From NCBI GenBank assembly GCA_965250285.1, contig OZ252299.1, positions 992,001-1,056,000 on the forward strand: a stretch of 64,000 bases of DNA, given 5' to 3'. The position numbers were made by a program, and so were the translations under genes. The notes under the pieces were generated by a model. That model was not told the DNA's origin. It saw only the letters and a program-made list of their open reading frames with translations, and searched no databases. The first letter of the stretch is position 1; each line of letters begins with the position of its first letter. This document shows positions 11,784-37,399 of the stretch, piece by piece. Source of the DNA: Myxococcota bacterium. GTDB taxonomy: Bacteria > Myxococcota_A > UBA9160 > UBA4427.

Positions 11784-13244
11784 ATGCGGCGCCTCAGTGA
11801 GTTCGTAGACGGCTCCTCGATGAAGGCGATGGGCGCGGTGGCGGCCTCGGCGCTGTTCGCGCTCGGCTGTGCTCAGCTCGGCGGCCCGAAGCCGGCCTGG
11901 GAGCAGGAGCCCCCCGCGGCCAACGCCGCGCCGATCGTGGCCGAGGGGGCGCTGACCCAGATCGCGCTCGAGAACGGTCTCGAGCTGATGCTGCTCGAAG
12001 ACGACCGGCTGCCGCTCGTCTCGGTCGGGCTCACCTTCAAGCGCGGCGCGGGCATCGAAGCTCTCGACCAGGCCGGCGCTGCTCGGTTCACCGCAGAGCT
12101 GATGAACCGCGGCGCGGGCGATCTCGACGCGACCGCGCTCGCCGAGCGGGTCGATGCCCTCGGCGCCACGCTGACGATCACCGCGGGTTGGGATTCGATG
12201 TCGATCGGCCTGTCGGGTCTGTCGCGAGATACCGACGCGCTGCTCGAGGTCCTCGATGCGGTGGCGCGGCAGCCCCGCTTCGACGAGGCCGAGGCCGAGG
12301 CGACGCGGGCCCAGCAGATCGCTGGGCTGCGCAGTCAAGAGGATGATCCGTCGACGCTCGCGCGCCGCGCGGCCATGGTCACGCTCTACCAGGGGCATCG
12401 ATACGGCCTGCCGGCCGATGGCACGCTCGAGACGGTGGCGAAGCTCGACGCCGACGTGGCGCGCGAGCTGCACGGCCGCATCTTCCTGCCGAACAACGCG
12501 ATCTTCTACGCCGTGGGCGACTTCGAGAGCGCGTCGATGAAGGATCGAGTGCGCTCGCGCTTCGAGGGTTGGAGCGCCGGCGACGTGCCCGAGCCCGTCG
12601 CGCCGCCGCCGTCGCCCACGCCGACCGAGATGCGCATCGTCATCGCCGACAAACCCGATCTCGTGCAGGCGCGCATCATCCTGGCGCACGAGGGCATCTC
12701 GCGCACCGACGACCGCCGCATCGGCGCCGGCCTGCTCGACGACGTGCTCGGCGGCAGCGGCTTCTCCTCACGCATGATGAAGGAGCTGCGGTCGAATGAG
12801 GGCTTGACCTACGGTGTCTACTCGGGCTTCGCCATGCGTCGACAGCCCGGCCCCTTCGCGGTCAGCACGTTCACGCGTGTGCCCGAGACGCGGCGTGCGG
12901 TCGACATCCTGCTCGAGCAGATCGAAGCGATCCGGTCGACGCAGCCGGTCACGGTCGATGAGCTGGCCCACGCCAAGAGCTACTCCGTCGGGCAGTTCGC
13001 GCTCGGCCTCGAGACATCGGAGGCCGTCATGGGCTCGCTGGTGAACCTCGAGGTCTATGGGCTCCCGGCCGACTCGCTCGACACGTACCGCGCCCGCGTG
13101 AACGCCGTGACGGTCGAAGAGGTGCACACACTCTCCCGCGAGCTGCTGCATCCGACCCGCATCGCCGTGGTCCTGCTCGGCCCCGCCGAAGCCTTGATCC
13201 CCCAGTTCGAAGGCCTGGGCAACATCGAGACCATCACCCCCTAG
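11784..13244 (+). CDS. M16 peptidase non-catalytic partner subunit, lipoprotein
   Basis: Lipobox ALG-C; LENGL; HXXEH replaced by RFTAE; Gly-rich LGGSGFSSRM..LR...GLTYG; ATG immediately follows the partner's TAG. Confidence 0.88.
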   Translation: MRRLSEFVDGSSMKAMGAVAASALFALGCAQLGGPKPAWEQEPPAANAAPIVAEGALTQIALENGLELMLLEDDRLPLVSVGLTFKRGAGIEALDQAGAARFTAELMNRGAGDLDATALAERVDALGATLTITAGWDSMSIGLSGLSRDTDALLEVLDAVARQPRFDEAEAEATRAQQIAGLRSQEDDPSTLARRAAMVTLYQGHRYGLPADGTLETVAKLDADVARELHGRIFLPNNAIFYAVGDFESASMKDRVRSRFEGWSAGDVPEPVAPPPSPTPTEMRIVIADKPDLVQARIILAHEGISRTDDRRIGAGLLDDVLGGSGFSSRMMKELRSNEGLTYGVYSGFAMRRQPGPFAVSTFTRVPETRRAVDILLEQIEAIRSTQPVTVDELAHAKSYSVGQFALGLETSEAVMGSLVNLEVYGLPADSLDTYRARVNAVTVEEVHTLSRELLHPTRIAVVLLGPAEALIPQFEGLGNIETITP

Positions 13245-13362: not shown

Positions 13363-13494
13363 TCGGGATTTTCGGGTGGCGCCCGCAAGTTGGAGGCGGG
13401 CGCCGAAGCTGCTCACGCCGCCGTGGAGCCCGCGGCGAACCGCTCCCGCAAGGCCAGCCCGCCGGAATCTGAGGACGACACCCGATCATCCCGA
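13363..13494 (+). repeat. Structured intergenic element, copy A
   Basis: Core GCGCCCGCAA (13379-13388) ... CTGAGGACGA (13469-13478) closed by tcgggtg/cacccga and tcgggat/atcccga stems; same core as the two copies at 36.3-36.6 kb. Confidence 0.75.
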
Positions 13495-13532: not shown

Positions 13533-16500
13533 TCAATCCCCGAAGATCTCGAGAATGTCCGTCCCGCGCACGTACCGCGACGGATGCACCGCCTCGGCCA
13601 GCTCGTCGACCGAGATGCCGTCGGGTCGGATCTGCGCCAGCCAGTCGGCCTGGATCGGTCGGTACTCACCCGGCGTGAGCCCGAGGGCGCGGTGGTGGTC
13701 GAACAGCGCGTCGAGGTCTTCGAAGATCTGATACGCATCGAAGAGCGAGCTCGGCCGGTTCTTCACGTAGCGGCGGAACTCGAAGCCGACGACGCGCCGG
13801 GTGCCGCTCGAGCGGCGGTAGCGATCGAGCGCGTCGGCGAGCACGGCTCGCACCGCGCCGGCGCGCACACCGTCGACACCGAAGACGCGCTCGTAGAGCT
13901 TGATCGACTGTTCGGCGTCCTGCGCGAGCAGGCGGGGCTGGGCGACGGTGACGAGGCCGTCTCGGCGCGGCGAGTCGGTGCCGATGTCGTCGATGATGCC
14001 GGCCCCGTCGAGATAGCGGTGCCACTCCTTGACGGTGCGGTCACGCGGCCGCACGGCGAGCTCTCTCAGCCGCCTCGGGTCGGAGACGCGCCACTCGCTC
14101 GGCATCCAGGGCGCGGGCGGGGGCGCGATCTCGTCGCCGACGAACGTGCGGCTCGTGTCGTCGCGGGACGGTCCGAACGCATGCAAGGCGGGCAGTGCGA
14201 TGGGCGCGTCGGCGAACTGCCAGTCGAAGTCTCCCGCGACGAGTGGGTCGTTCTCGATGTTGATCGCCGTCAGCGCGAAGCCCGTGAAGTTCGGATCGGT
14301 GATCTCGGGGGGGTTGAGAATGGCCAGCGAAGGGCCGCGGCCGCTCGCCACGAGCTGCGGCGGGACGTTCATCGAGAACGTGTTCGCGACGAAAGAAACG
14401 CCCGCATCGCCGAGCCGGCGTCCGTCGGGCGTCAGGTAGCTGCTGCCGCGGCGGCGGATGATGTCGATTTCGCCGATCGACTCGTCGACGTCGAGCACGA
14501 TATCGAGCGCGGCGATGTCACCGACGGCCACTCGATCCCTCGAATACGCCTCGAAGCCACCCTGGACCGCGATCTTCTGGCCCTGGCCGACGCGGAAGCC
14601 GTCGCGCGTGAAGAACGTCAGCTGCTCGCCGCCGTCTTCCGGGTCGGCGTCGGCCTTGTAGATACTCGAGACCTCGGGAATGACCGTGACCTCGACGTCG
14701 AGGTTGGCGAAATCCTGAGACGGCGCGACGGCGATGATCTCGGTGTCGACAGCGAAGACGTACTGGTCTTCGACGCTGTCGAATGCGACGGCATCGAGGC
14801 CTCCGTCGTCGGCGTCGAAGCGCACGCGGATGCTGTCGAACCAGTGCCGCGTGATGTCGTTCACAGCGTCTTCGTCGGCCAGGGCGCTCCAGGCCACCGT
14901 GATCGCGTCGCCCAGCTCGTTCGTGATCACCTCGCTCGAGATGCCGCGGCAGTCGCCCGAGCCGTCGCCGAGCTGGCAGCCTACGTCTCCGCCAAACTTG
15001 ATGGTGCCGCGCGTGATGAAGTCGAGGCCTGACGAATCGTCGACGTCGGTCGAGGCATTGAGCACGTCGCCCCCGAACGTGATGTCTGCGCCGCGCAGCT
15101 CGATGTTGCCGTAAACGAGCACCTCGCCATCGAAGATCTGCTCGTTCGTCGTCTCGATCAGCGTCTCGATGGTGTCGGGGTCATCGTCGACGTCCATGTC
15201 GAAGACGCTGCCGAGCTCGATCGTCAGTGTGTCGTCGGCGGCATCGGCGGCTTCCCGTACCTCGAGGCTCGTCAGCGTGAGCCCCTGAAGCAGCGTCTCG
15301 GGGACGTCGATCTGCACCGAGTCGAGGCCCTCGAGCACGAGGGCCGTGCCCTGCACCTTGTCGGCGGTGTCGACGCCGACCTGGATCGTCGGGTCGACCT
15401 CGTTGCCCTGATACAGCTTCAGCGTGTAGTCGACGCCGACCAGCCCATCGGTGAACTGGAAGAAGTCGGGGAGGTTCTGCGCGCCCCCGCCATTGCCATC
15501 CGGTGCCTCGAGGAACGAGCGCGCCTGCTCGATCGTGAACGCCAGAAGTGGCGCGCCGGGGTTCGAGTTCGCCGCGAAGAACACGTCGCCGTTCGCGTCG
15601 ACGATGCCGTCCCCCCCGCCGGGCGTGCTGCCCGCGATCAGTTGAATCTCGTCACCGATCAGAGCGCCCCGGTCGATCCCCGCGTCGACGAAGTCGACGT
15701 CGAGCGTCGTCGCCGTCGCCGAGGCCTGGTCGATCTGGATCAGGCCGGGTCGGTCGTCGGTTTCGTCGTCATCGTCATAGAAGCCGTTCACGTTGGCGAG
15801 CAGCAGAAAGCGGCTCGCCCGAATGTTCGGCAGGTCGTCGATGTAGATCCCGCGGCGGTTCGACTGCAGGGTGTACGAGAACAGCGAAGGGGTCGTCGAG
15901 CCGTCCTGCGGATCGAGATTGATGAACTGCGTCGCCTGGACGGGCAGCGTGAGATCGACCGAGCTGGCCTCGCGATCGCGGTTGCTGTTCACCCAGGCGT
16001 CCTGGACGATCGTAAAGCGATCATTGTTCGTGTTCTGCCGGATCGAGTCGGGCAGGTCGTCGGGCTGCAGGAAGTTGAAGACCGGCGCGTTCGTGCGCGC
16101 GTCGACGTAGGGCAGCAGCACGTTCGACGAGCCGAGGTTCGAGGGGCCGAACGCGCCGAGGCGAATGTCCTCTGACTGAATCTCGACGTTGTCGTAGAAG
16201 GTGAGATTGCCGATCCCGCCCCCACCGGCGCGCAGCGAGACGAAGTCGGCCCCCTGAAGCGTGATCGGCTGCGTGGCGCTGCCGACCTGCCAGTCGTAGT
16301 CGGACGTCGCGTCGAACGACTCGGTGAAGAAGACCGGGGCCACGCCCTTGAAGAGGATGAAGCGGGCCGACTTGTCGGGGTTCTGTGGGTCGTCCTGGAT
16401 CGACGAAGGAATGAAGGCCTGGATCACGCCGCCAAACACGCGGTCGGGCACCAGCTCGATGTCCCCGTGGAAGCTGGTCAGCGACAGGGTGGTGCGGCGC

Positions 16501-19500
16501 CGATCGTCGTCGCAGCCGGTGCCCGGTGAGCTCGACTGACCGCGCCCGAACCCGCACCCCGAGCCAGAGCGTTCGAGATCGAGCAGGTCGCTCGTCGAGC
16601 CGTCGTCGCTGCTGGCGAAGGTCGCGTCCTGCACGACCGTGATTGCACTGGGGATCGTCTCGTTGGGTTCGGGCCCTTCGTTCTGCACGCGCAGATCGAG
16701 GGGCTCGGGCACCGGCACGTTGTCGCGGGGATCGGTGGTCTCTTCGGGCGTGGCGTAGACGTAGAGGCCGAGCTGGGGCGTGTCGCCGAAGATCACCCGT
16801 GCCAGCGGGGTTTCGGGGGTCAGGGGTTCGAACTCACCGGTCGAGGGGTCGGCGACGTTCAGGTCGACGTTCTCGGCGCGCAGGGCGATCTGGTCGGAGC
16901 GGATCTCGACGAGGATCGGCGCCCCGTCGGCCGAGAAGATCTGCTCCATGTCGAGGTTTTCGCCGTCGGTGCGGGTCAGGATCGTCGTCGGAGCGGCGAG
17001 GATGGTCCGCTCGGTCGAGATCGGCAGTCGACCGGGGCTGGTGTCGGGATCGAACTCGTTGATGATCAACGAGAACGCCCCGTTCTCGCTCTCGACGGCG
17101 TAGACGCCCGGGGCCCCGTCCTCGCCCGGCGTGTCGGTGATGAACTGGGTCGCGACGTCGGGCAGCGGCGACGTCGTGGCGTCGCCGTCGATCACGAGAT
17201 TGATGTCGCCGTCCTGACGAAAGACGAACTGCTCGACCGGGGTGGCGCCTCCCGAGAAACGCACCTGCTCGTGGACGTCGATGAACGAACTGTTCGAGAT
17301 GCTGCTGGCGCCGTCGCTCGCCACCAGCCGGATCTGCTTGGCGGTGAGCGTCGTCAGGGCATCATCGGGCAGCAGCTCGAACGAGAGCTCGCCGAACTCG
17401 GCCACGCCGGCGCGGAACGTTGCGGCCTCGGGGGTCTCACCCGCGACTTCGGTCGGGCCCACGAACGCGAACTGATCGATCAGCTGCTGCGTCACTTCGA
17501 AGCTGGTCTGGCCGCCGACGTCGTAGGTGCGCACCTCGAGCTGCCTCGGATCGTCGTTGTCGTCGGTGCCCATGTCGACGGTCACGCCCGAGAAGCCCAG
17601 CAGCGCGAGGTTCGTGCGCTGCACCTTCTGGCCGCCGGCGAAGCCCAGCTCGATCCCCGCCGAATCCGATCGCAGGTTGTAATCGACGAGCCCGATCTCG
17701 TTCTCGGCGAGGTTTGCGTTCACGAACTGGTCGACGTCGGGCAGGTCGTCGTCGGTGATCTCGGCCTCCTGCCGGATCGTGAAGCTGCGGTAGGCGTCGT
17801 CGGTCGGATCGAGGTCGATCCCGAGATCGAACTCGACGCGGGTCGCCGAGTCGGCCGACGCGAGCACGCGGTTCGTCTGCGAGAAGCCGTCGGACCCGGA
17901 GATTCCACCTTCGCCCGAGCCCGCGCGCAGCACGAGGCCACTCGACGCCAGCCGGATCGGTGTGCCGTCGCCGCCGCTCTCGGTGCCGAAGATCAGGTCG
18001 CCGGCGCCGCCCCCCTCGGCGGCGTGCAGCACGAGCTGCTCGCTCGCATCGAGCGTGACCCCGTCGTTGATCCGCAGCCCCGTCTCGGTGCTCGAGACCG
18101 GGCGACGACCGGTCGCGATCGACAGGTCGTCGGTCGCGAGGCTCGCATTCGTCGCGAGCAGGGTATCGACGGTGAACCCCTGGTCGATCGTCAGGTCGAG
18201 GGCCTGGAGGTTCGCCTCGGCCCAGCTGCCGGTCGCCGGATCTTCGAGCACGATCGCCGGACGTCCGTCGGCCGCGTCGGCCTCGGCGCGCAGCTCGAGC
18301 AGTGCGCCGAAGTCGCTGCGGTCGTCGTCGGGGCCACCCGGGAAGGCGTTGCCCGCCACCTTGGTCGGGTCGTCGAGCGTGACGGTGCCGGTGATCGACT
18401 CGATCACGTAGATCAGACCGTCGAGGGCCCGGCGTGCGGCCGCCTCGTCGCCATCGATCTCGACGAAGTGCACGTCGGCCTCGAGCACGTCGCTCGCTTC
18501 GACCGTCGCGTTCTGGGCCCAGTTGAGCGAGTTGATCTTCTGATCGTTGGCGAGCGTCGGCGGGCCGTCGGGACCGAACAGCTTCACGTCGCCCGCTTCG
18601 ATGCGCGACTGTGTCTCAGAGAATCCGAGCGCCGAAGAGATGCCCGCGCTCACCTGAATGTCGATCGCGTGGATCTGCGGGCCTTCGCCGCTCGCGTTCG
18701 AGACGAAGCGCAGATCGCCGCGCACGCTGTTCGGGTTGGTCGAGCGGTTGGCCGAGAAGAGGGCGACCTCGCGACCGCGCAGCGTATGCGGGCTGCCGTC
18801 GGGCGCGGCGTTCTCGATCGTGAGCTCGCCGGCCGACTCGATCGCGATCACGCCGAACTCGGCGTTCTCGAGGGCGAGGTCGAGCTCGGCACCGGGCTCG
18901 AGCCCGGCGTCGATCGTGGCGGCCACATGGGACGTGGCAAAGGAGGGACCGTCGGGGATGTCCGTGCCCGCGCCGTTCGGGTCGACGTTGACCAGGATCG
19001 TTCCGCCGCCCGTCCGGATCAGCGGCGTCGTCGGCGACGTGCGTCCGTCGATGATGTCGACCCGACCCGACGGGTTGGCGGGCCCCTGACCGTGGGCGTT
19101 CATGAAGATGTTGCCCCCGATCGTGTCGACGAAGCCGTCGTCGTCGCGGTCGGGGTCTTCGGGGCGGGTGTCGATGGCGCCGTAGATCTCGATGGCGTTC
19201 TTCTTGTCCTGGCTCGAATCGCCGGCGCCGAGATTGCTCGACGCCTCGATCAGGACGTCGCCGCCGAGGGTCGTCATCGATCCCGTGCTCGCGAGAGTGA
19301 TGCGCCCGCCCGTCTCGTTTGCGCCGGGCGTGAGCGCGGCGTCCTCGGAAACGCGGATCGACACGAGGTCGAACGTGCCCTGGTCGGCCGAGATGTGGCC
19401 TTCGATCACGAGGTCGCCGCCGGCCGCCTCGGCGTCGAGCGCGACGATGCCGTCTTCGTGAAAGCCGAGGTCGATGTCGCCGAACAGCCGAATGTCACCG

Positions 19501-21626
19501 CCCTCGCGCGCCGTCTCGCTGCTGCCATTGCGGCGGACGTCGGCGAACTGCGCGCGTAGCGTCATGGCGCCGCCGGGCAGCGGGTCGCCGTTGTTGTCGG
19601 TGCGGCTGCTCGACGTGTCGATGTCGCCGTAGAAGTTCACGTCGCCGCCACCCGACGGGATGCCCGTGTTCGGGTCGATGGCGCCGATCGCCGCGACCAG
19701 CACGTCGCCGCCGTCGGTCTCGATCGAGAAGCCGTCCTGAAGCGTGATGTCGATGCCCTGGATGAGGACGTCCGAGCGGTTGGTCTTGATGTTGCCGTTC
19801 AGCGTGACGTCGCCGACGTAGATGTTCTCGATCTCGCCCTCGCCGGCGGGCAGCTCGGGCTGGCTGGCACTGTCGTTCGCGAGCAGCTGTACGCCGAGAT
19901 TCAGGTTCTCGAACCGCGGGTCGTTGCCGCCGCCAATATCGGCGTTGATGATGATGCTATTCGCCGCGCGCAGCTGCAGGGTGACCGACGTGTTCTCGGC
20001 CGCGGTCTCACCCGGCAGGATGTCGGACAGGACGAGGATGTCGCCGACCTGCGTGCCCACCTCGTTCGTGCCGGTGGCGGTCGTGATCGTGAGGTTGCTG
20101 CCTGAGTTCAGCGCGTCGGTGACGACCGACGCGTCGAGCAGCGAGTTCTCGGCCGCGGCGAACAGGATCGGGTTGCTGACGAAGAAGAGGTCGTCGAGGT
20201 CGACGCCCTTGTCGAGGCAGCGCGGGTCGGCCTCGCACTCTTCGGGGGTGAAGCCGAAGTCGCCGATCGTGATGTTGTACGGATCGATCAGCCAGGTGCC
20301 GGTGGGGTCGACGTCGCGCCGCACCCGGGCCGACGCGTCGGCGGCGCGGGTGATGTCGAGATAGGCCTTGCCCGACGTCTCGATGAATCCGCCGTCGCCG
20401 GCGTATTCGCCACCCCGAGCCGTGATGGCGCCGTGAATGTAGGCGTGACCGTCCGACCAGAGGATCACCTCGCCGCCGTCGCCCGCGTAGTCGGCGTCGG
20501 CGTGGATCCGCGCCGTCTCGCTCATGAAGAGCAGCTGGGCCTTCTGCATGTCACCCGAGCCGGCGAGGTCGCCACCGATACGGATGCGACCGCCGCCCTC
20601 GCTGCCGGTCGCATCGATCACCGCATCGTCGGCGATGGCGATGCGCTCTCCGAACACGTCGATGTCGCCGCCGCGGGCGTTCTTGCCCTCACGGGTCGCG
20701 TCGAGGGTGCCGCCGATCTCGACGCCACTGCCGTCGCCGCCCGCGATCTCGATGGTGCCCGCTCGGATCAGGCCTGACTCGGGCGGGGCCGCCCCCGACT
20801 CCTGCGCGATGCGCTGCACGACGCGGTTGCGGATCGCGTAGGCGAGCCCGTCGGCCGCGGCGAGTCGCACGCTGCCGCTCGGGCCGGCGTCGATCACCCC
20901 GGTGTTCTCGATGGCGGGGGTGTCGGCCGAAGTGCCCGCGTCCGAGCCTTCGGCGGGGACCTTCACGACGATCGGGCTCTCGAAGTCGCGGATCCAGACC
21001 TCGTTGCCCGCGAGCATGAGCAGCTTGCCGCCCTCGACGTAGATGTCGCCGTGGTTCGCGACGCGCTCGCCGATCAGCGCGACCTCGAAGGCCTCGATCG
21101 TGCCTTCGTTGGTGACCATGCCGTTGACCTGTTCGAAGCGCATGGTGCCGGAGAGGAAGTCGGCCTGGCTCATCTGACCCGCGGCCGCGATCAGGTTGTA
21201 CACCTGCACCGACGAGCCATCGGCGAAGTGGATGCCGGCCTCGTTGGCGAAGATGACGGTGCCGTTGCTCTTGACGGTGCCGAAGAACTGGAACGGGTTC
21301 TGGCCGCGCCCCTCGTTCAGCGCGGCGGCGTTCGCGCCCGACTGATCGAACTCGAGCGTGTGACCGCTGTGCTGCTGAATGCCGTCCCATTCGTACACGA
21401 CGCGACCCTGACTGGTGAGCGTCGTCTGATTCTGCTCGTTGACGGTGACCGCGCCCTGACCATGGGTGACCTCGACCTGGCCGATCGACGTCTGCTCCTG
21501 CGCCGCCGCGGTGGCGGCCGACATCGCGACCCAGGCGTAGAGCAGGGCGGCCGACAACGTCACGGCCCGCCGCGGCGCGGGGCGCGGTGACGGGCGGTGC
21601 TCGGTCGTGTGGGCGGTTTCGGTCAT
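13533..21626 (-). CDS. Two-partner secretion exoprotein TpsA (filamentous haemagglutinin/HMW-like), 2697 aa
   Basis: Signal peptide (MTETAH...AATAAAQ); TPS domain (ALNEGRGQNPFQFFGTVKSNGTVIFANEAGIHF); HMW-type segment GGDIDVFGERIAI..GGGRIRIGG..GDGGEVILWSDG..GGFIETSGK..GTWLIDP; lies 20 bp downstream of TpsB. Confidence 0.9.
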   Translation of the reverse strand: MTETAHTTEHRPSPRPAPRRAVTLSAALLYAWVAMSAATAAAQEQTSIGQVEVTHGQGAVTVNEQNQTTLTSQGRVVYEWDGIQQHSGHTLEFDQSGANAAALNEGRGQNPFQFFGTVKSNGTVIFANEAGIHFADGSSVQVYNLIAAAGQMSQADFLSGTMRFEQVNGMVTNEGTIEAFEVALIGERVANHGDIYVEGGKLLMLAGNEVWIRDFESPIVVKVPAEGSDAGTSADTPAIENTGVIDAGPSGSVRLAAADGLAYAIRNRVVQRIAQESGAAPPESGLIRAGTIEIAGGDGSGVEIGGTLDATREGKNARGGDIDVFGERIAIADDAVIDATGSEGGGRIRIGGDLAGSGDMQKAQLLFMSETARIHADADYAGDGGEVILWSDGHAYIHGAITARGGEYAGDGGFIETSGKAYLDITRAADASARVRRDVDPTGTWLIDPYNITIGDFGFTPEECEADPRCLDKGVDLDDLFFVSNPILFAAAENSLLDASVVTDALNSGSNLTITTATGTNEVGTQVGDILVLSDILPGETAAENTSVTLQLRAANSIIINADIGGGNDPRFENLNLGVQLLANDSASQPELPAGEGEIENIYVGDVTLNGNIKTNRSDVLIQGIDITLQDGFSIETDGGDVLVAAIGAIDPNTGIPSGGGDVNFYGDIDTSSSRTDNNGDPLPGGAMTLRAQFADVRRNGSSETAREGGDIRLFGDIDLGFHEDGIVALDAEAAGGDLVIEGHISADQGTFDLVSIRVSEDAALTPGANETGGRITLASTGSMTTLGGDVLIEASSNLGAGDSSQDKKNAIEIYGAIDTRPEDPDRDDDGFVDTIGGNIFMNAHGQGPANPSGRVDIIDGRTSPTTPLIRTGGGTILVNVDPNGAGTDIPDGPSFATSHVAATIDAGLEPGAELDLALENAEFGVIAIESAGELTIENAAPDGSPHTLRGREVALFSANRSTNPNSVRGDLRFVSNASGEGPQIHAIDIQVSAGISSALGFSETQSRIEAGDVKLFGPDGPPTLANDQKINSLNWAQNATVEASDVLEADVHFVEIDGDEAAARRALDGLIYVIESITGTVTLDDPTKVAGNAFPGGPDDDRSDFGALLELRAEADAADGRPAIVLEDPATGSWAEANLQALDLTIDQGFTVDTLLATNASLATDDLSIATGRRPVSSTETGLRINDGVTLDASEQLVLHAAEGGGAGDLIFGTESGGDGTPIRLASSGLVLRAGSGEGGISGSDGFSQTNRVLASADSATRVEFDLGIDLDPTDDAYRSFTIRQEAEITDDDLPDVDQFVNANLAENEIGLVDYNLRSDSAGIELGFAGGQKVQRTNLALLGFSGVTVDMGTDDNDDPRQLEVRTYDVGGQTSFEVTQQLIDQFAFVGPTEVAGETPEAATFRAGVAEFGELSFELLPDDALTTLTAKQIRLVASDGASSISNSSFIDVHEQVRFSGGATPVEQFVFRQDGDINLVIDGDATTSPLPDVATQFITDTPGEDGAPGVYAVESENGAFSLIINEFDPDTSPGRLPISTERTILAAPTTILTRTDGENLDMEQIFSADGAPILVEIRSDQIALRAENVDLNVADPSTGEFEPLTPETPLARVIFGDTPQLGLYVYATPEETTDPRDNVPVPEPLDLRVQNEGPEPNETIPSAITVVQDATFASSDDGSTSDLLDLERSGSGCGFGRGQSSSPGTGCDDDRRRTTLSLTSFHGDIELVPDRVFGGVIQAFIPSSIQDDPQNPDKSARFILFKGVAPVFFTESFDATSDYDWQVGSATQPITLQGADFVSLRAGGGGIGNLTFYDNVEIQSEDIRLGAFGPSNLGSSNVLLPYVDARTNAPVFNFLQPDDLPDSIRQNTNNDRFTIVQDAWVNSNRDREASSVDLTLPVQATQFINLDPQDGSTTPSLFSYTLQSNRRGIYIDDLPNIRASRFLLLANVNGFYDDDDETDDRPGLIQIDQASATATTLDVDFVDAGIDRGALIGDEIQLIAGSTPGGGDGIVDANGDVFFAANSNPGAPLLAFTIEQARSFLEAPDGNGGGAQNLPDFFQFTDGLVGVDYTLKLYQGNEVDPTIQVGVDTADKVQGTALVLEGLDSVQIDVPETLLQGLTLTSLEVREAADAADDTLTIELGSVFDMDVDDDPDTIETLIETTNEQIFDGEVLVYGNIELRGADITFGGDVLNASTDVDDSSGLDFITRGTIKFGGDVGCQLGDGSGDCRGISSEVITNELGDAITVAWSALADEDAVNDITRHWFDSIRVRFDADDGGLDAVAFDSVEDQYVFAVDTEIIAVAPSQDFANLDVEVTVIPEVSSIYKADADPEDGGEQLTFFTRDGFRVGQGQKIAVQGGFEAYSRDRVAVGDIAALDIVLDVDESIGEIDIIRRRGSSYLTPDGRRLGDAGVSFVANTFSMNVPPQLVASGRGPSLAILNPPEITDPNFTGFALTAINIENDPLVAGDFDWQFADAPIALPALHAFGPSRDDTSRTFVGDEIAPPPAPWMPSEWRVSDPRRLRELAVRPRDRTVKEWHRYLDGAGIIDDIGTDSPRRDGLVTVAQPRLLAQDAEQSIKLYERVFGVDGVRAGAVRAVLADALDRYRRSSGTRRVVGFEFRRYVKNRPSSLFDAYQIFEDLDALFDHHRALGLTPGEYRPIQADWLAQIRPDGISVDELAEAVHPSRYVRGTDILEIFGD

Positions 21627-21646
21627 CGAGTCGCTTGCAGCCTGGG

Positions 21647-23803
21647 TCAGTAGGATACGCTGAAGAGGAAGTGGAAGGTGCCCTTGGGATCGATTCGGTC
21701 TTCGTCGGGGCACACCAGCGCGTTCGACGCGCAGGTCACACGGTCGTACAGGCCGTGCCCCCAGTCGACGCGCGCGCGCACGAATCGGCCCAGGAAGAGC
21801 TCGAGTCCGACACCCGCACCGACGAGCGTCTGGTTGAGCTCGACGTTCGAGACCGACAGCTCGCGCTGATTTCGAACAGTGGCGCCCGCGTCGACGAAGC
21901 CGCGCAAGATCAGATCCCAGTCGGGGCGACCGTACACCTGCTGCGGTGAGACGCGGAAGTCGCCCACACCGGGCAGGCGCACGGGGCGCGGCCGTACGCC
22001 GAGTGCACGCGGAATGTGGAACCGGTACTCGACGCTGCCGACGTAGGTCGAGTCGCCCGCGGCGAGGCCGTTCTCGAAGCCTCGGACGCTGTAGAGGCCG
22101 CCGATCACCTGCGCTGCCTGGGGGATCAAGCGGTAGTTGAACGCGTACTGTCCGCGAAACGACACCGCGAGCTCGTGGGCGAGGGTCGAACTCCACTCGG
22201 TCGAGGGATCGCGCCAGCCGCTCGGGTTCAGCAGCGGCTCGAGGTAGTAGCTCGCGCCGGTGTCCCACTGCAGCACCGCCCACTTCTGCGACACGAGCTG
22301 TCGGCCTGTGGCCAACCTCGCCTCTTCGTCGCTGAAGTTCGTGAAGCCACCGCCGCCGCTGAACCGCGCGAAGACGCTCGAGAACAGATTGACGCGCTGC
22401 AGACGAAACCCCGCGACCGGCTCGAGGACGAGGCCGTGCCCGTTGAACGGATCCTGGAGGGATTGATTCTCGACGTTCACGCCGCGCAGGCCGATGCCGC
22501 CGAAGATGTCGACGAAGAGCGCTCGGTGCTGGAAGATGTTGTACGTGAGCTCTCCGCCGATCTGCCAGTCGTTCGTGATGACCAGCGTGTCCTCGTTGGC
22601 CTGAGCTGCCGTGTTGATCTCGGCTTCGTAGCGGCTCCAGTTGCCCTGCACGCCCCAGCGCAGTCGGTCGAGCCCCCACCACGGGATGTCGTCGCGGTCG
22701 AGCCAGCGAATCCACGCTGGCTCGCGGCGACCCTGGCGCATCCACGCCGGTCGTGCGGGCGAGAACCACGGCGCCGAGTAGGCGACGCTGATCGAGTTGA
22801 CGTTGTCGAGCCCCGCGTTCAGGTACTCGACCGAGAGCATGTCGTCGCGGCTCGTCAGCTGCGTGTTCTGGTAGCCGACGCGCTGCTGCCAGAGCGCGGT
22901 GCGGTCGGTGCCCGTGTTCGACGACGTGAAGTACGCGAGCCAGGGCTTGGCTTCGTAGACGCGGTAGTCGAGGGCGATGCCGGTCTCGTCGGCCGAGGGG
23001 CCGAGCGACGCTTCGACCTCGCGGCCCGGGTGCCGGTTGAGACGAAACACGTAGCTCTCGAGCACGTCCTCGAGGAGCAGGTCGGTGGTGTCCTCGCGGC
23101 CCGCATCGGCGGGGAAGAGCGGCGAGGCGGCCAGGATGCGCTTGTGCTTCGGGTTGTCGATCCGCCAGTCTTCTTCGATGCGCGGGCCCGTCGCGACCGT
23201 GCGGACGTCCTCGATCTGCCCGACCCAGACCTCGAGACGCAGGTCGGTGTCGCCCTTCGGGCGCAGATCGCGCTCGCTCGTCGGTTCGATCTGCTGCGGA
23301 TCGGGCAGGATGAAGATGCCGAGCAGGCCCGCTTCGCGTGTCCGCCCGAGCATGGCCTGGCCGATGCTCGCGAGTGCGCTCGCATGGAACTCGCCGTCGA
23401 CCTCGGTGAGTGGACCGAAGCGGAGCGTCTCTTCGGGCTGGCCTGGACGCGGCGCCACGTAGCCCGTCTCGGTCGGCGTCAGCACGACGCTGACCGGCAG
23501 CAGCTCGTCGAGTGGGGGCAGATCGGGGTGCGGGTCGCGGTAGCCGATCGCGAGCTTCGAGATGGCGTAGGCCGGCCCATCGCCCTCGACCGCCTCGATC
23601 GCGATGCTCGTCTCGTCCGAGGACGCCATGTAGCGCGAGGGATCGGCCACCCACTGGGCCTGCGCCGCGGTGGGATGGAACAGCGACAGCAGGATCGCAC
23701 CCGCCGCGGTCGCCCCCACCGCGCCCGCACGCACCGACCCACGGGCGGGCTTCGGCGGGGCTCCGGCGGACCGGGCCCGGGCACGGCGCTGTCGGGGGTT
23801 CAT
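21647..23803 (-). CDS. TpsB/ShlB/FhaC-family outer-membrane transporter
   Basis: POTRA-like region (RLNRHPGREVEASLGP), SNTG..TA..Q.RVG, loop-6 motif GGLYSVRGF, GSVEYRF, FVDAG, GAGVG, C-terminal aromatic FSVSY. Start at ATG 23803 is uncertain. Confidence 0.9.
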   Translation of the reverse strand: MNPRQRRARARSAGAPPKPARGSVRAGAVGATAAGAILLSLFHPTAAQAQWVADPSRYMASSDETSIAIEAVEGDGPAYAISKLAIGYRDPHPDLPPLDELLPVSVVLTPTETGYVAPRPGQPEETLRFGPLTEVDGEFHASALASIGQAMLGRTREAGLLGIFILPDPQQIEPTSERDLRPKGDTDLRLEVWVGQIEDVRTVATGPRIEEDWRIDNPKHKRILAASPLFPADAGREDTTDLLLEDVLESYVFRLNRHPGREVEASLGPSADETGIALDYRVYEAKPWLAYFTSSNTGTDRTALWQQRVGYQNTQLTSRDDMLSVEYLNAGLDNVNSISVAYSAPWFSPARPAWMRQGRREPAWIRWLDRDDIPWWGLDRLRWGVQGNWSRYEAEINTAAQANEDTLVITNDWQIGGELTYNIFQHRALFVDIFGGIGLRGVNVENQSLQDPFNGHGLVLEPVAGFRLQRVNLFSSVFARFSGGGGFTNFSDEEARLATGRQLVSQKWAVLQWDTGASYYLEPLLNPSGWRDPSTEWSSTLAHELAVSFRGQYAFNYRLIPQAAQVIGGLYSVRGFENGLAAGDSTYVGSVEYRFHIPRALGVRPRPVRLPGVGDFRVSPQQVYGRPDWDLILRGFVDAGATVRNQRELSVSNVELNQTLVGAGVGLELFLGRFVRARVDWGHGLYDRVTCASNALVCPDEDRIDPKGTFHFLFSVSY

Positions 23804-24056
23804 GGGCGGGCTCTCGACCGTGTCGATCGCGAGCCGCAGGCGGGGGGGAGTGCGGCCCGACGAGGCTTCGGGGCGGCACAGGCTAAGACACCCTGGGGCC
23901 GGCGACCACGGCTCCCAACCATTTGATTTCGAAAGCGAAGCAGTCATTCTCGACCGGCTCGGGCGGGGCGTCTGAATCGCCTCGCCGACCTCCGGTCCCC
24001 CCAGGATTTCGCACACAGGACACCGGTCGCCCGGTCTCCTGCATGGGCACCTGACA

Positions 24057-35165: not shown

Positions 35166-35948
35166 TTAGAGGAGGCCGAGCTCCTTGATCTTGTTCACGA
35201 GCTGGCCCACGACCTCGTCCGTCGACCCTTCGAGGATCTCGGCCGAGTCGCCCTTGGGCGGCACGTAGACCTTGTTGACCGTGACCTTGGCCGCGCCGCC
35301 ACCGACGGCATCACCGACGCCGAGATCGGCGGCGGTCTTGACGTCGACCGGCTTCTTCTTCGCCTGCATGATGCCCTTGAGCGAGGCGTAGCGGACCTGG
35401 TTCGCGCCGGTCTGGATTGCGGCGAGACAGGGCTTCGGCAGCTCGACCACCTCGTAGGCACCACCCTCGAGCTCGCGCTCGACGGTCATGCCCGCGTCGG
35501 TGCTGTCGGTCTTGACGACGCCCGTGGCCGACGGCACACCGAGCAGCTCGGCGAGCATCGGGGGCACCGACGACAGGTTGTCGTCGTCGGCCATCAGGCC
35601 GGTAAAGACGACGTCGGGGTTCTCGTCCTTGGCGACGGCGGCGAGCACCTTGGCCAGGCCGAGGGCGTCGCTGCCGCTGACGGCGTCGTCCTTGATGTGG
35701 ATCGCGCGGTCGGCGCCCATGCCGAGCGCGGTGCGCAGGGCCTGGGTCACGCGGTCGGGACCGATGGAGACCACCACGACCTCGGCGTCCCCCGCATCTT
35801 TCATGCGGAGCGCCTCTTCGAGGGCGTAGGTGTCGTAACTGTTGATCTCGAACTTGATGTTGTCTTCCTGAATCCAGGTTCCGTCGCCGGCGACATCGAG
35901 CCGTGCGTCCTGATGGGGAACCTGCTTCAGGCACACCATGACCTTCAT
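35166..35948 (-). CDS. etfB: Electron transfer flavoprotein beta subunit
   Basis: MKVMVCLKQVP, INSYDTYALEEAL, ALGMGADRAIH, VERELEGG, RYASLKGIMQAKKKP. Confidence 0.96.
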   Translation of the reverse strand: MKVMVCLKQVPHQDARLDVAGDGTWIQEDNIKFEINSYDTYALEEALRMKDAGDAEVVVVSIGPDRVTQALRTALGMGADRAIHIKDDAVSGSDALGLAKVLAAVAKDENPDVVFTGLMADDDNLSSVPPMLAELLGVPSATGVVKTDSTDAGMTVERELEGGAYEVVELPKPCLAAIQTGANQVRYASLKGIMQAKKKPVDVKTAADLGVGDAVGGGAAKVTVNKVYVPPKGDSAEILEGSTDEVVGQLVNKIKELGLL

Positions 35949-36302: not shown

Positions 36303-36432
36303 TCGGATCTTCTGGGGCGTCGTCCTCAGTCTGCGGGCGTGGGTCGTGCGGGGGCGGAGCGCTTGCGCGGCGCCGGGGAGCGGCGATTGGGATCGCGCCC
36401 TTCGATTGCGGGCGCCGCCCCAGAAGATCCGA
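36303..36432 (-). repeat. Structured intergenic element, copy B (inverted)
   Basis: Perfect 17-bp terminal IR tcggatcttctggggcg/cgccccagaagatccga enclosing the reverse-complement cores TCGTCCTCAG (36320-36329) and TTGCGGGCGC (36406-36415). Confidence 0.85.
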
Positions 36433-36512
36433 GCGGCGAGCCCGAGGCCCAGGCCCGTTTGCGAGGCCGTTGCGTGCTGCACCGCGATTCGGTGCAGCGC
36501 CGAGGCTGCGTT

Positions 36513-36643
36513 CGCGGTTTCGTGGGGCGGCGCCCGCAATCGAAGGGCGGCGTGCGCGGGTACGGTGCCCCGGAACGGACGCAACCGTCCGGGTCCGTAC
36601 AACCCGCGCCCGCAGACTGAGGACGACGCCCCACGAAACCGCG
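36513..36643 (+). repeat. Structured intergenic element, copy C
   Basis: Perfect 17-bp terminal IR cgcggtttcgtggggcg/cgccccacgaaaccgcg enclosing GCGCCCGCAA (36530-36539) and CTGAGGACGA (36617-36626). Confidence 0.85.
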
Positions 36644-36865: not shown

Positions 36866-37399
36866 TTGAGGAACTTCGAGCGAAGGCAGCGGGGCTCTGT
36901 GTTCGGGCGGGTCGGGCTCGCCCTGGGCTTGCTCGTGCTGTGGGCGGGGCCGGTCGCGTCCGAGTCGGATCGGCCGACCGAGGTGCCCTACGAGACGACG
37001 GGCGACTTTCCGAGCCTCGATCCCGGCTATCGACGGTCGAGCCATCAGGTCGTGCTGATCACGGATGAAGCGCTGAGTCCGCGTCTCGCGACGCTGGAAG
37101 AAGGGCAGCTCGTCGCCTGGATCAGCTACTCGAAGAGCGCCTCGACCATCGTGTTCGAGCGCGAGGTCGCGCGCTCGATGATCTGCCACAGCCTCGTCAA
37201 CTTCACGATCAAGGACGACGAGCTGAAGAGCGCCGAGATCCACCCGGGTGAGTTCGCGAGCTTCTGCGAGCTGAAGCCCGGGCGGTACCGCTACAAGGTG
37301 ATCCGCCCGAACCCGAAACAGGGCGGTGTCGGCGGGGTCGCGCGGCGGCTGCACGGCGAGATCATCGTCGGCAATCCCAACGACGACGACGACGACTGA
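36866..37399 (+). CDS. Secreted cupredoxin-fold-like protein
   Basis: Signal peptide; cupredoxin-like strand pattern LSP...TLEEGQLVAW, IHPGEFASF..LKPGRYRY, LHGEIIV. Confidence 0.6.
   Translation: MRNFERRQRGSVFGRVGLALGLLVLWAGPVASESDRPTEVPYETTGDFPSLDPGYRRSSHQVVLITDEALSPRLATLEEGQLVAWISYSKSASTIVFEREVARSMICHSLVNFTIKDDELKSAEIHPGEFASFCELKPGRYRYKVIRPNPKQGGVGGVARRLHGEIIVGNPNDDDDD

Follow-up and report, generated by a model that had tools for sequence, protein, structure and literature searches.

Among described repeats, the nearest likenesses of the element reported here are the REP and REPIN sequences with their RAYT (TnpA-REP) transposases, especially the long group-2 REPs, which passages of three papers (PMC8266576, PMC3116915, PMC3733652) present as intergenic imperfect hairpins with a conserved mismatch zone, arranged in inverted doublets, with compensatory stem changes, clustering and lineage-restricted persistence, in units of 20-40 nt. 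Integron attC sites, in the part of PMC5027507 that bears on them, are long imperfect hairpins that follow stop codons and carry unpaired features and a strand skew. GRINS are duplicated coding regions (>500 bp, >80% identity) in which GC and TA skews are correlated and reach their peak at third codon positions, together with copy homogenisation; the section of PMC8256042 that treats them states the cause of this intense local skew and gene conversion as unknown. Two further works (10.1101/2022.05.22.493013 and PMC3189936) belong to the same comparison literature, as do the IS5-family MITEs (IS5 group, CTAG target).

The hairpin family described here, from a genome of the Myxococcota, shares these REP/REPIN traits of form, arrangement and inheritance but departs from them in other respects. 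Its unit is 73-165 nt long; the foot of its stem bears GG-N-N-GC-N-N-GG and no GTAG-type guide; CGTC occurs only inside the core of subfamily 1, not at the stem foot; no RAYT was found in the most copy-rich genomes and no hairpin near Y1 genes; and the flanking genes show a codon skew of a sort that the REP/REPIN passages cited above do not report. It resembles attC sites in the features just listed, but has neither an R-box consensus nor a cassette array. The skew recalls GRINS in joining correlated GC and TA skew at third codon positions to copy homogenisation, whereas in form it is a halo of 150-300 nt that reaches into unrelated genes, with a non-coding hairpin at its centre setting the orientation. 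One sister group, subfamily 2, is an IS5-family MITE; subfamily 1, by contrast, lacks detectable ends and any CTAG preference, and its conserved part is internal while the outer stem drifts, the reverse of a MITE. The family is REPIN-like, yet without the guide and the RAYT, and its halo resembles GRINS in kind, not in form. The element family is genuine and under selection, and it represents a variant among non-autonomous palindromic repeats. Across openly available main-text literature we found no description of this hairpin family or of a hairpin-centred skew halo.

Anatomy of the hairpin

The window, that is, the whole 64-kb stretch of DNA analysed, belongs to a genome that we call the home genome (G000); a second genome of the same genus (G001) is called the sister genome. 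The A strand of a hairpin is the one on which the first-pass annotation reported it, with purine-rich G.A loops and a C/A-rich interior, and the B strand is its G/T-rich complement. The window contains three copies, A to C, with the following features.

13122..13244, + strand: skew halo in the last 40 codons of an M16 peptidase gene (A strand is sense)
13363..13494, + strand: copy A hairpin, subfamily 1 (covariance-model score 110.5 bits; + strand is A, - strand is B)
13533..13655, - strand: skew halo in the last 40 codons of a giant-protein gene (B strand is sense)
35166..35948, - strand: electron transfer flavoprotein gene, left neighbour of the B/C pair (host gene, divergent)
36303..36432, - strand: copy B hairpin, left member of a tail-to-tail pair (102 bits; perfect 17-bp outer stem)
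36433..36512, no strand: short pair spacer between copies B and C, with a 9-bp central hairpin at 36476-36498
36513..36643, + strand: copy C hairpin, right member of the tail-to-tail pair (98.5 bits; perfect 17-bp outer stem)
36899..37399, + strand: hypothetical protein, right neighbour of the B/C pair (signal-peptide-like start; not enzyme-like)

Nearly all that had been read from the sequence of these three copies was borne out: their coordinates, two shared 10-mers (spanning 100, 96 and 97 nt in A, B and C) with the G.A and C.A mismatches, two perfect 17-bp outer stems, the interrupted 7+7 stem of copy A, every inner stem, and the central hairpin of the pair. Copy A lies between the convergent M16 peptidase and giant-protein genes, and the sister genome carries a copy at the same gene end in the same orientation; it also has a pair between the same two genes that flank copies B and C. 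One DNA contig, which may be the source itself, spans the B/C pair without change. Where other pairs have a longer spacer, it contains an inner inverted repeat that is conserved. Pfam and NCBIfam searches with the hypothetical protein right of the pair gave no match. The giant-protein ORF (window 13533-23879, - strand) has 3448 codons (2676 aa by the gene caller) and no assigned function; it adjoins M16 peptidase genes in the sister genome too, with an extra kinase-like gene between them there.

The window copies had folding z-scores between -1.9 and -7.8 when each strand was folded under each of two energy sets. In the 6.25-Mb genome the exact two-motif pattern is found 12 times, where an order-3 Markov model (gaps 75-85 nt) expects 0.0005, so it is not a product of chance. 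Read on the B strand, a leader ending in the foot motif is followed by an outer stem of 16-24 bp with drifting sequence and, inward of it, by a core in which one T.G and one T.C are invariant, then a loop, an inner stem of 7-8 bp and a free tip. The fixed part, in the 57 of 73 copies that could be anchored, comprises five core pairs (four Watson-Crick, one T.G) and the T.C mismatch, and in an alignment-free count both core mismatches were present in 57/57. Outer-stem cells, also counted without alignment, were Watson-Crick in 836 of 855 cases (98%), with 2 G.T and 7 A.C; such near-total pairing is as expected of a DNA stem or of arm copying. An alignment of 34 sequences, fitted to the structure model and including one opposite-strand match as well as related, non-independent copies, had 26 of 32 pairs changing on both sides and 95.5% of cells paired; 0 of 500 shuffles reached the observed pairing or covariation, and slid controls reached 40-50%. 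The idea of selection on structure around a fixed, mismatched core, put forward in the first-pass annotation, is supported by this covariation and by the invariant mismatches.

Other proposed traits proved narrower. The original 10-mers are subfamily-specific, not family-wide. A GCAA-containing loop in every copy fails across the family: GCAA occurs in 21 of 76 interiors, as a tetraloop on a stem of at least 3 bp in only one of 76 (0.3 expected), and GCAA/GNRA tip loops are not conserved. The interiors, described as unrelated, are not wholly so, CGYANRG adjoining the inner stem in 35 of 76. Some relatives consist of stem and core alone, in 73 nt. Two copies (L415 in G021 and L124:25-218 in the sister genome) have one arm replaced by a perfect mirror of the other, with the core mismatches erased, which is consistent with template switching.

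The motif GCGNAGC, which forms a stable DNA mini-hairpin, is found more often on the A than on the B strand, by 23:8 in tails and 11:4 in leaders. Because the stems lack wobble pairs and GCGNAGC is biased to A, we infer that the site folds as single-stranded DNA. The purine-rich G.A-loop strand (A) would then be, with somewhat better than even probability, the strand that is folded and recognised; against this, B is the strand with the more stable fold as RNA.

Copies, sites and turnover

The family proved to be dispersed, as first proposed. A covariance model, R1, gave 25 distinct subfamily-1 copies in the home genome (37 matches, 12 of them opposite-strand re-matches); scanning with a weight matrix had recovered 21 copies in full and 2 in part. 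In the sister genome R1 gave 41 distinct matches, 39 of which were analysed as subfamily-1 copies after exclusion of one aberrant long copy and one sister-type copy. Genes resembling mglA/mglB and a pilin of myxobacterial type point to a lineage related to the myxobacteria. With a broader model, R3, matches came from six families and 32 of the order's 151 genomes (those scoring close to the cut-off were inspected only in part); across the phylum it matched 3 of 151 genomes, all in the same order, and the hairpin models gave no match outside the order in that phylum set. Metagenomes hold at least 22 copies on 15 contigs, three of which are near-identical to sister-genome loci; the scan behind this count kept 44 stretches among the 80 listed of 102, and 36 with an identical-length match were dropped as presumed coding coincidence. 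An exact-pattern search of GTDB returned 4 loci, 2 of them real and both on sister-genome contigs, and in viral contigs the pattern matched 36, 0 and 27 times, never with an outer stem.

By our own gene calls all 25 home-genome copies of subfamily 1 are intergenic, at 19 sites, and 12 of the 25 sit in tail-to-tail pairs. On the B strand, 6 of 6 pairs in the home genome and 11 of 12 in the sister genome are tail-to-tail, the remaining sister-genome pair being tandem. Ten of the 19 sites fall within 90 kb (0 of 100,000 in the clustering test), and the syntenic region is copy-rich in the sister genome and on metagenome contigs as well. Intergenic sites, tail-to-tail pairs and local clustering uphold the REP/REPIN-like behaviour suggested at the outset. 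Among 13 single copies, 11 have B as the leading strand, but 7 of them belong to one cluster, so little weight is placed on this bias.

Copies flank the orthologue of a gene that lies within 700 nt of a home-genome copy in 23 of 39 sister-genome and 7 of 15 metagenome cases; under a stricter test, 15 of the 36 testable copies from the two sources share both gene end and orientation with a home-genome copy. The copy tree (FastTree on short sequences, midpoint root, three partial home-genome copies left out) groups mostly by genome and in part by site, including the window pair and copy A. From persistence at orthologous sites and a tree ordered mostly by genome, we infer that sites persist while copy sequences get replaced. 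In the comparison of empty sites between the two genomes, the spacers are too diverged for a target duplication to be read.

Several individual loci deserve mention. At G000:C1:5234263-5234439 a short tandem repeat of ~39 nt stands between convergent genes, where the sister genome has a hairpin copy. In G116 a tail-to-tail pair (L422:1008-1330) lies in frame within the error-prone polymerase gene dnaE2, adding ~90 residues absent from the home-genome homologue; counting the two copies that precede imuA (L401, L413), the imuABC operon is touched at three loci and is possibly an insertion hotspot, a suggestion made post hoc. A role of the hairpin as imuA leader was rejected: it precedes imuA in G061 and G124, but at only 1 of the best 30 imuA loci. 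Upstream of imuA (L539-L568), many genomes of the class have a conserved TTGAC promoter box followed by CGAA-N-AGACGAA, a candidate SOS operator.

Convergent genes flank nine of the 19 home-genome sites, compared with 187 of 2363 long gaps, a location that would suit a structured RNA module at gene 3' ends, acting as an RNase or RNA-binding-protein site, a transcript stabiliser or an insulator; other mobile elements would have spread it because its presence renders gene-end insertions tolerable, and the skew of the flanks would reflect selection against competing folds. In the intact IS5 elements described below, the A strand is the transposase sense strand directly 3' of the stop codon, which fits; yet the genes on either side of the window pair are divergent, and for most copies it is the B strand, not A, that runs in the sense of the nearest gene. 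The purine-rich G.A loops resemble RNA motifs, and position 37 (U-A/C-G) covaries with position 154 within the loop, but the stems are nearly without wobble pairs on either strand (2 and 7 of 855). Rfam gave 0 matches in the window at the gathering score and, in six loci, no match overlapping a hairpin even with E values of up to 5 allowed, and the window pair shows no U-tract terminator and no promoter consensus. The RNA alternative already raised in the first-pass annotation is compatible with the data, while the near absence of G.U stem pairs and the lack of an Rfam match argue against it; we consider it unlikely.

IS5 vehicles and the search for an enzyme

A further model, R2, detected a sister hairpin in an intact IS5-family element of 1.2 kb, where it follows the stop codon and precedes the right end; the element is present in G143 as 6 copies of 99-100% identity with CTAG duplications. 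The home genome holds 38 sister copies at 28 loci (subfamily 2), most with IS5 ends and transposase remnants; subfamily 2 has the terminal repeats and the CTAG duplication of an IS5 MITE and an intact parent in G143 and G547. Among its right ends 21 carry the hairpin, and 3 MITEs are without it; at G000:C1:2300752, 5278839-5278937 and 5426753, IS5 MITEs have the hairpin deleted across the stem. Other IS5 MITEs contain tandem duplications of the sister hairpin, with a 135-nt period and up to four units:

G000:C1:5764135-5764663; 1096166; 1539262; 5069509: tandemly duplicated sister hairpin

Of 35 IS5 homologue loci scanned, only that of G547 has the hairpin (88% identical protein). It is present in elements of G143, G547 and G163, while 11 other closely related right ends of IS5 lack it, and the pair of intact carriers groups as a nested clade (support 0.999; 0.956 including the hairpin-free sister). 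From the 11 hairpin-free ends and the nesting of the carriers, the hairpin is read as a probable gain of one IS5 subclade, that is, as captured by IS5. Although their sequences have diverged, hairpin-free right ends (L471-L475, L278, L281) have not changed in length (152 nt in five cases). In G005, 42 matches belong to a larger composite repeat of 450-600 nt with several hairpins and inverted ends (L519-L537). The hairpin accordingly has at least three vehicles: free-standing subfamily 1, the IS5 subclade with its MITEs, and the larger inverted-repeat element of G005.

Could subfamily 1 itself be an old IS5-derived MITE, which entered by CTAG cut-and-paste and lost its ends to erosion, its hairpin being a homogenised 3'-end feature of the IS5 lineage? 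The homologous hairpin in the intact element and the 38 sister copies lend this some weight, as do copies in G047 with decayed-looking ends at IS5 spacing, and the skew itself could erase an end; but the 75 subfamily-1 leaders fit the IS5 end no better than shuffles do (mean best match 8.6 versus 8.5 of 17), and a profile of these leaders found no IS5 end. Subfamily-1 tails contain a 26-nt motif that agrees with the tail of the IS5 MITEs at 16-18 positions and sits in almost the same register, a hint of MITE descent, yet when the two tails are aligned over their whole length the score does not reach significance (1128 of 3000). Stops adjacent to subfamily 1 showed no CTAG preference, being TAG in 11 of 26 cases, 4 of them CTAG (p=0.08 against all genes), compared with 140 of 374 in long convergent gaps and 35 of 50 for subfamily 2; in relatives TAG accounts for 18 of 36 and CTAG for 6. 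The nested position of the carriers among hairpin-free right ends also counts against such descent, as do the free forms, which are more diverse and span six families, and a relic would leave the fixed mismatches, the perfect drifting stems and the halo unexplained. Descent of subfamily 1 from an IS5 MITE is, on balance, doubtful.

The HUH/RAYT-type transposase that had been proposed to act on the hairpin was looked for and is not supported. Neither PF01797 nor NF047646 matched in the home genome (95% complete) or the sister genome (83% complete), searches for IS91 Y2 and reverse-transcriptase genes were blank in both, and none of the best 35 Y1/Y2 loci of relatives has a hairpin nearby. A RAYT-like gene in G051 was set aside, its flanks being unrelated to the hairpin. 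The copy clusters of the home and sister genomes contain no candidate enzyme gene, and the neighbours of copies are all housekeeping or unannotated (107 + 19 near home-genome copies, 54 from other genomes, 34 near copies in G005 and G110).

The home genome has a chromosomal integron at G000:C1:5462834-5488400 (L571, L584), with intI and, on its 3' side, >40 canonical attC sites of 129-135 nt; four more attC-like sites appear near 109-111 kb. That the hairpins are off-array attC-like substrates of its integrase is highly improbable, for although IntI is present in 5 of 5 high-copy genomes tested and lies 145-232 kb from the home-genome copy cluster, and the two-box geometry loosely recalls attC, the integron's own attC array is unrelated to the hairpins, which lack RYYYAAC/GTTRRRY ends and flank housekeeping blocks, and IntI shows no association with them (20 of 32 hairpin-positive versus 68 of 119 other genomes), leaving the attC/recombinase logic of the first reading unsupported.

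The oriented skew halo and its meaning

The surprising part, and a new observation here, is an oriented skew halo around the hairpin. Where a gene ends beside a subfamily-1 copy, the four-fold sites of its final 120 nt had G/(G+C) 0.696 if B is the sense strand (16 genes) and 0.209 if A is (10 genes), against 0.457 in the background, 0.464 at convergent long gaps and 0.464 in the same region; each of the three permutation controls (all genes, convergent gaps, same region) gave 0 of 20,000. T/(T+A) also differed by orientation, 0.60 versus 0.33, on small counts. In B-strand terms the halo fades over ~150 nt toward the 5' end and over ~300 nt toward the 3' end. Both genes beside copy A display it: four-fold sites in the halo of the M16 peptidase gene are C in 18 and G in 7 cases (remaining gene C 0.47, G 0.45), and those of the giant-protein gene G in 13 and C in 7 (remaining gene G 0.39, C 0.54). 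The direction is that of the genome's leading-strand bias, but the halo is many times stronger.

Subfamily 2 as a group (28 loci) is without a halo, at 0.485 over 26 gene ends (2063 of 20,000) and 0.441 in a second count; its only two loci without IS5 ends, however, are among the 20 most G-skewed of 4943 gene ends. In family f7, 16 copies show the same direction of skew on both sides. Ten anchored copies in G047 have the halo on the 3' side only, and in ten from G005 the skew is likewise one-sided, with no halo on the 5' side, where the non-coding flank is rich in C. An orthologue control used 18 gene ends with no copy in the home genome and a copy in a relative. In the near zone, G+T made up 94 of 234 sites without and 127 of 234 with a copy (p=0.003), whereas the far zone leaned the opposite way (658 of 1486 without, 609 of 1486 with); changes toward G/T numbered 67:34 near and 226:275 far (p=0.0001). 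These tests pool non-independent genes and count one gene twice, which makes the p-values optimistic. The halo could also reflect selection on the flanks for clean folding, not mutation.

The reading we prefer, to which we would give about an even chance, is that of a REPIN-like single-stranded DNA hairpin site whose core is read by a putative trans-acting protein and which undergoes strand-biased re-copying in place, with GRINS-like skew as a result. The A strand of the hairpin would fold as single-stranded DNA, and the putative protein would read the fixed mismatched core. Repeated local re-synthesis or conversion would then copy arm to arm and copy to copy, keeping the arms complementary and homogenising copies within a genome; it would leave the B strand exposed, so that nearby silent sites shift from C to T and G. 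IS5 would have captured the hairpin and spread it as MITEs, the movement of subfamily 1 not being attributed to IS5.

A more far-reaching version, which we hold only tentatively and at clearly less than an even chance, is that the hairpin is a self-maintaining DNA module without a transposase of its own, whose folded strand recruits host repair or error-prone replication, so that the module is re-copied in place and into sister sites and mutates one strand of its neighbours. If so, several unrelated mobile elements would have acquired this module, and it would be a defined cis trigger of GRINS-type skew.

For the family, the observations describe a REP-like repeat that persists without a detectable RAYT, and one hairpin common to an IS5 subclade and unrelated repeat vehicles. 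An element of 130 nt that orients the skew of neighbouring genes also offers a small, clonable test object for skew of the GRINS type.
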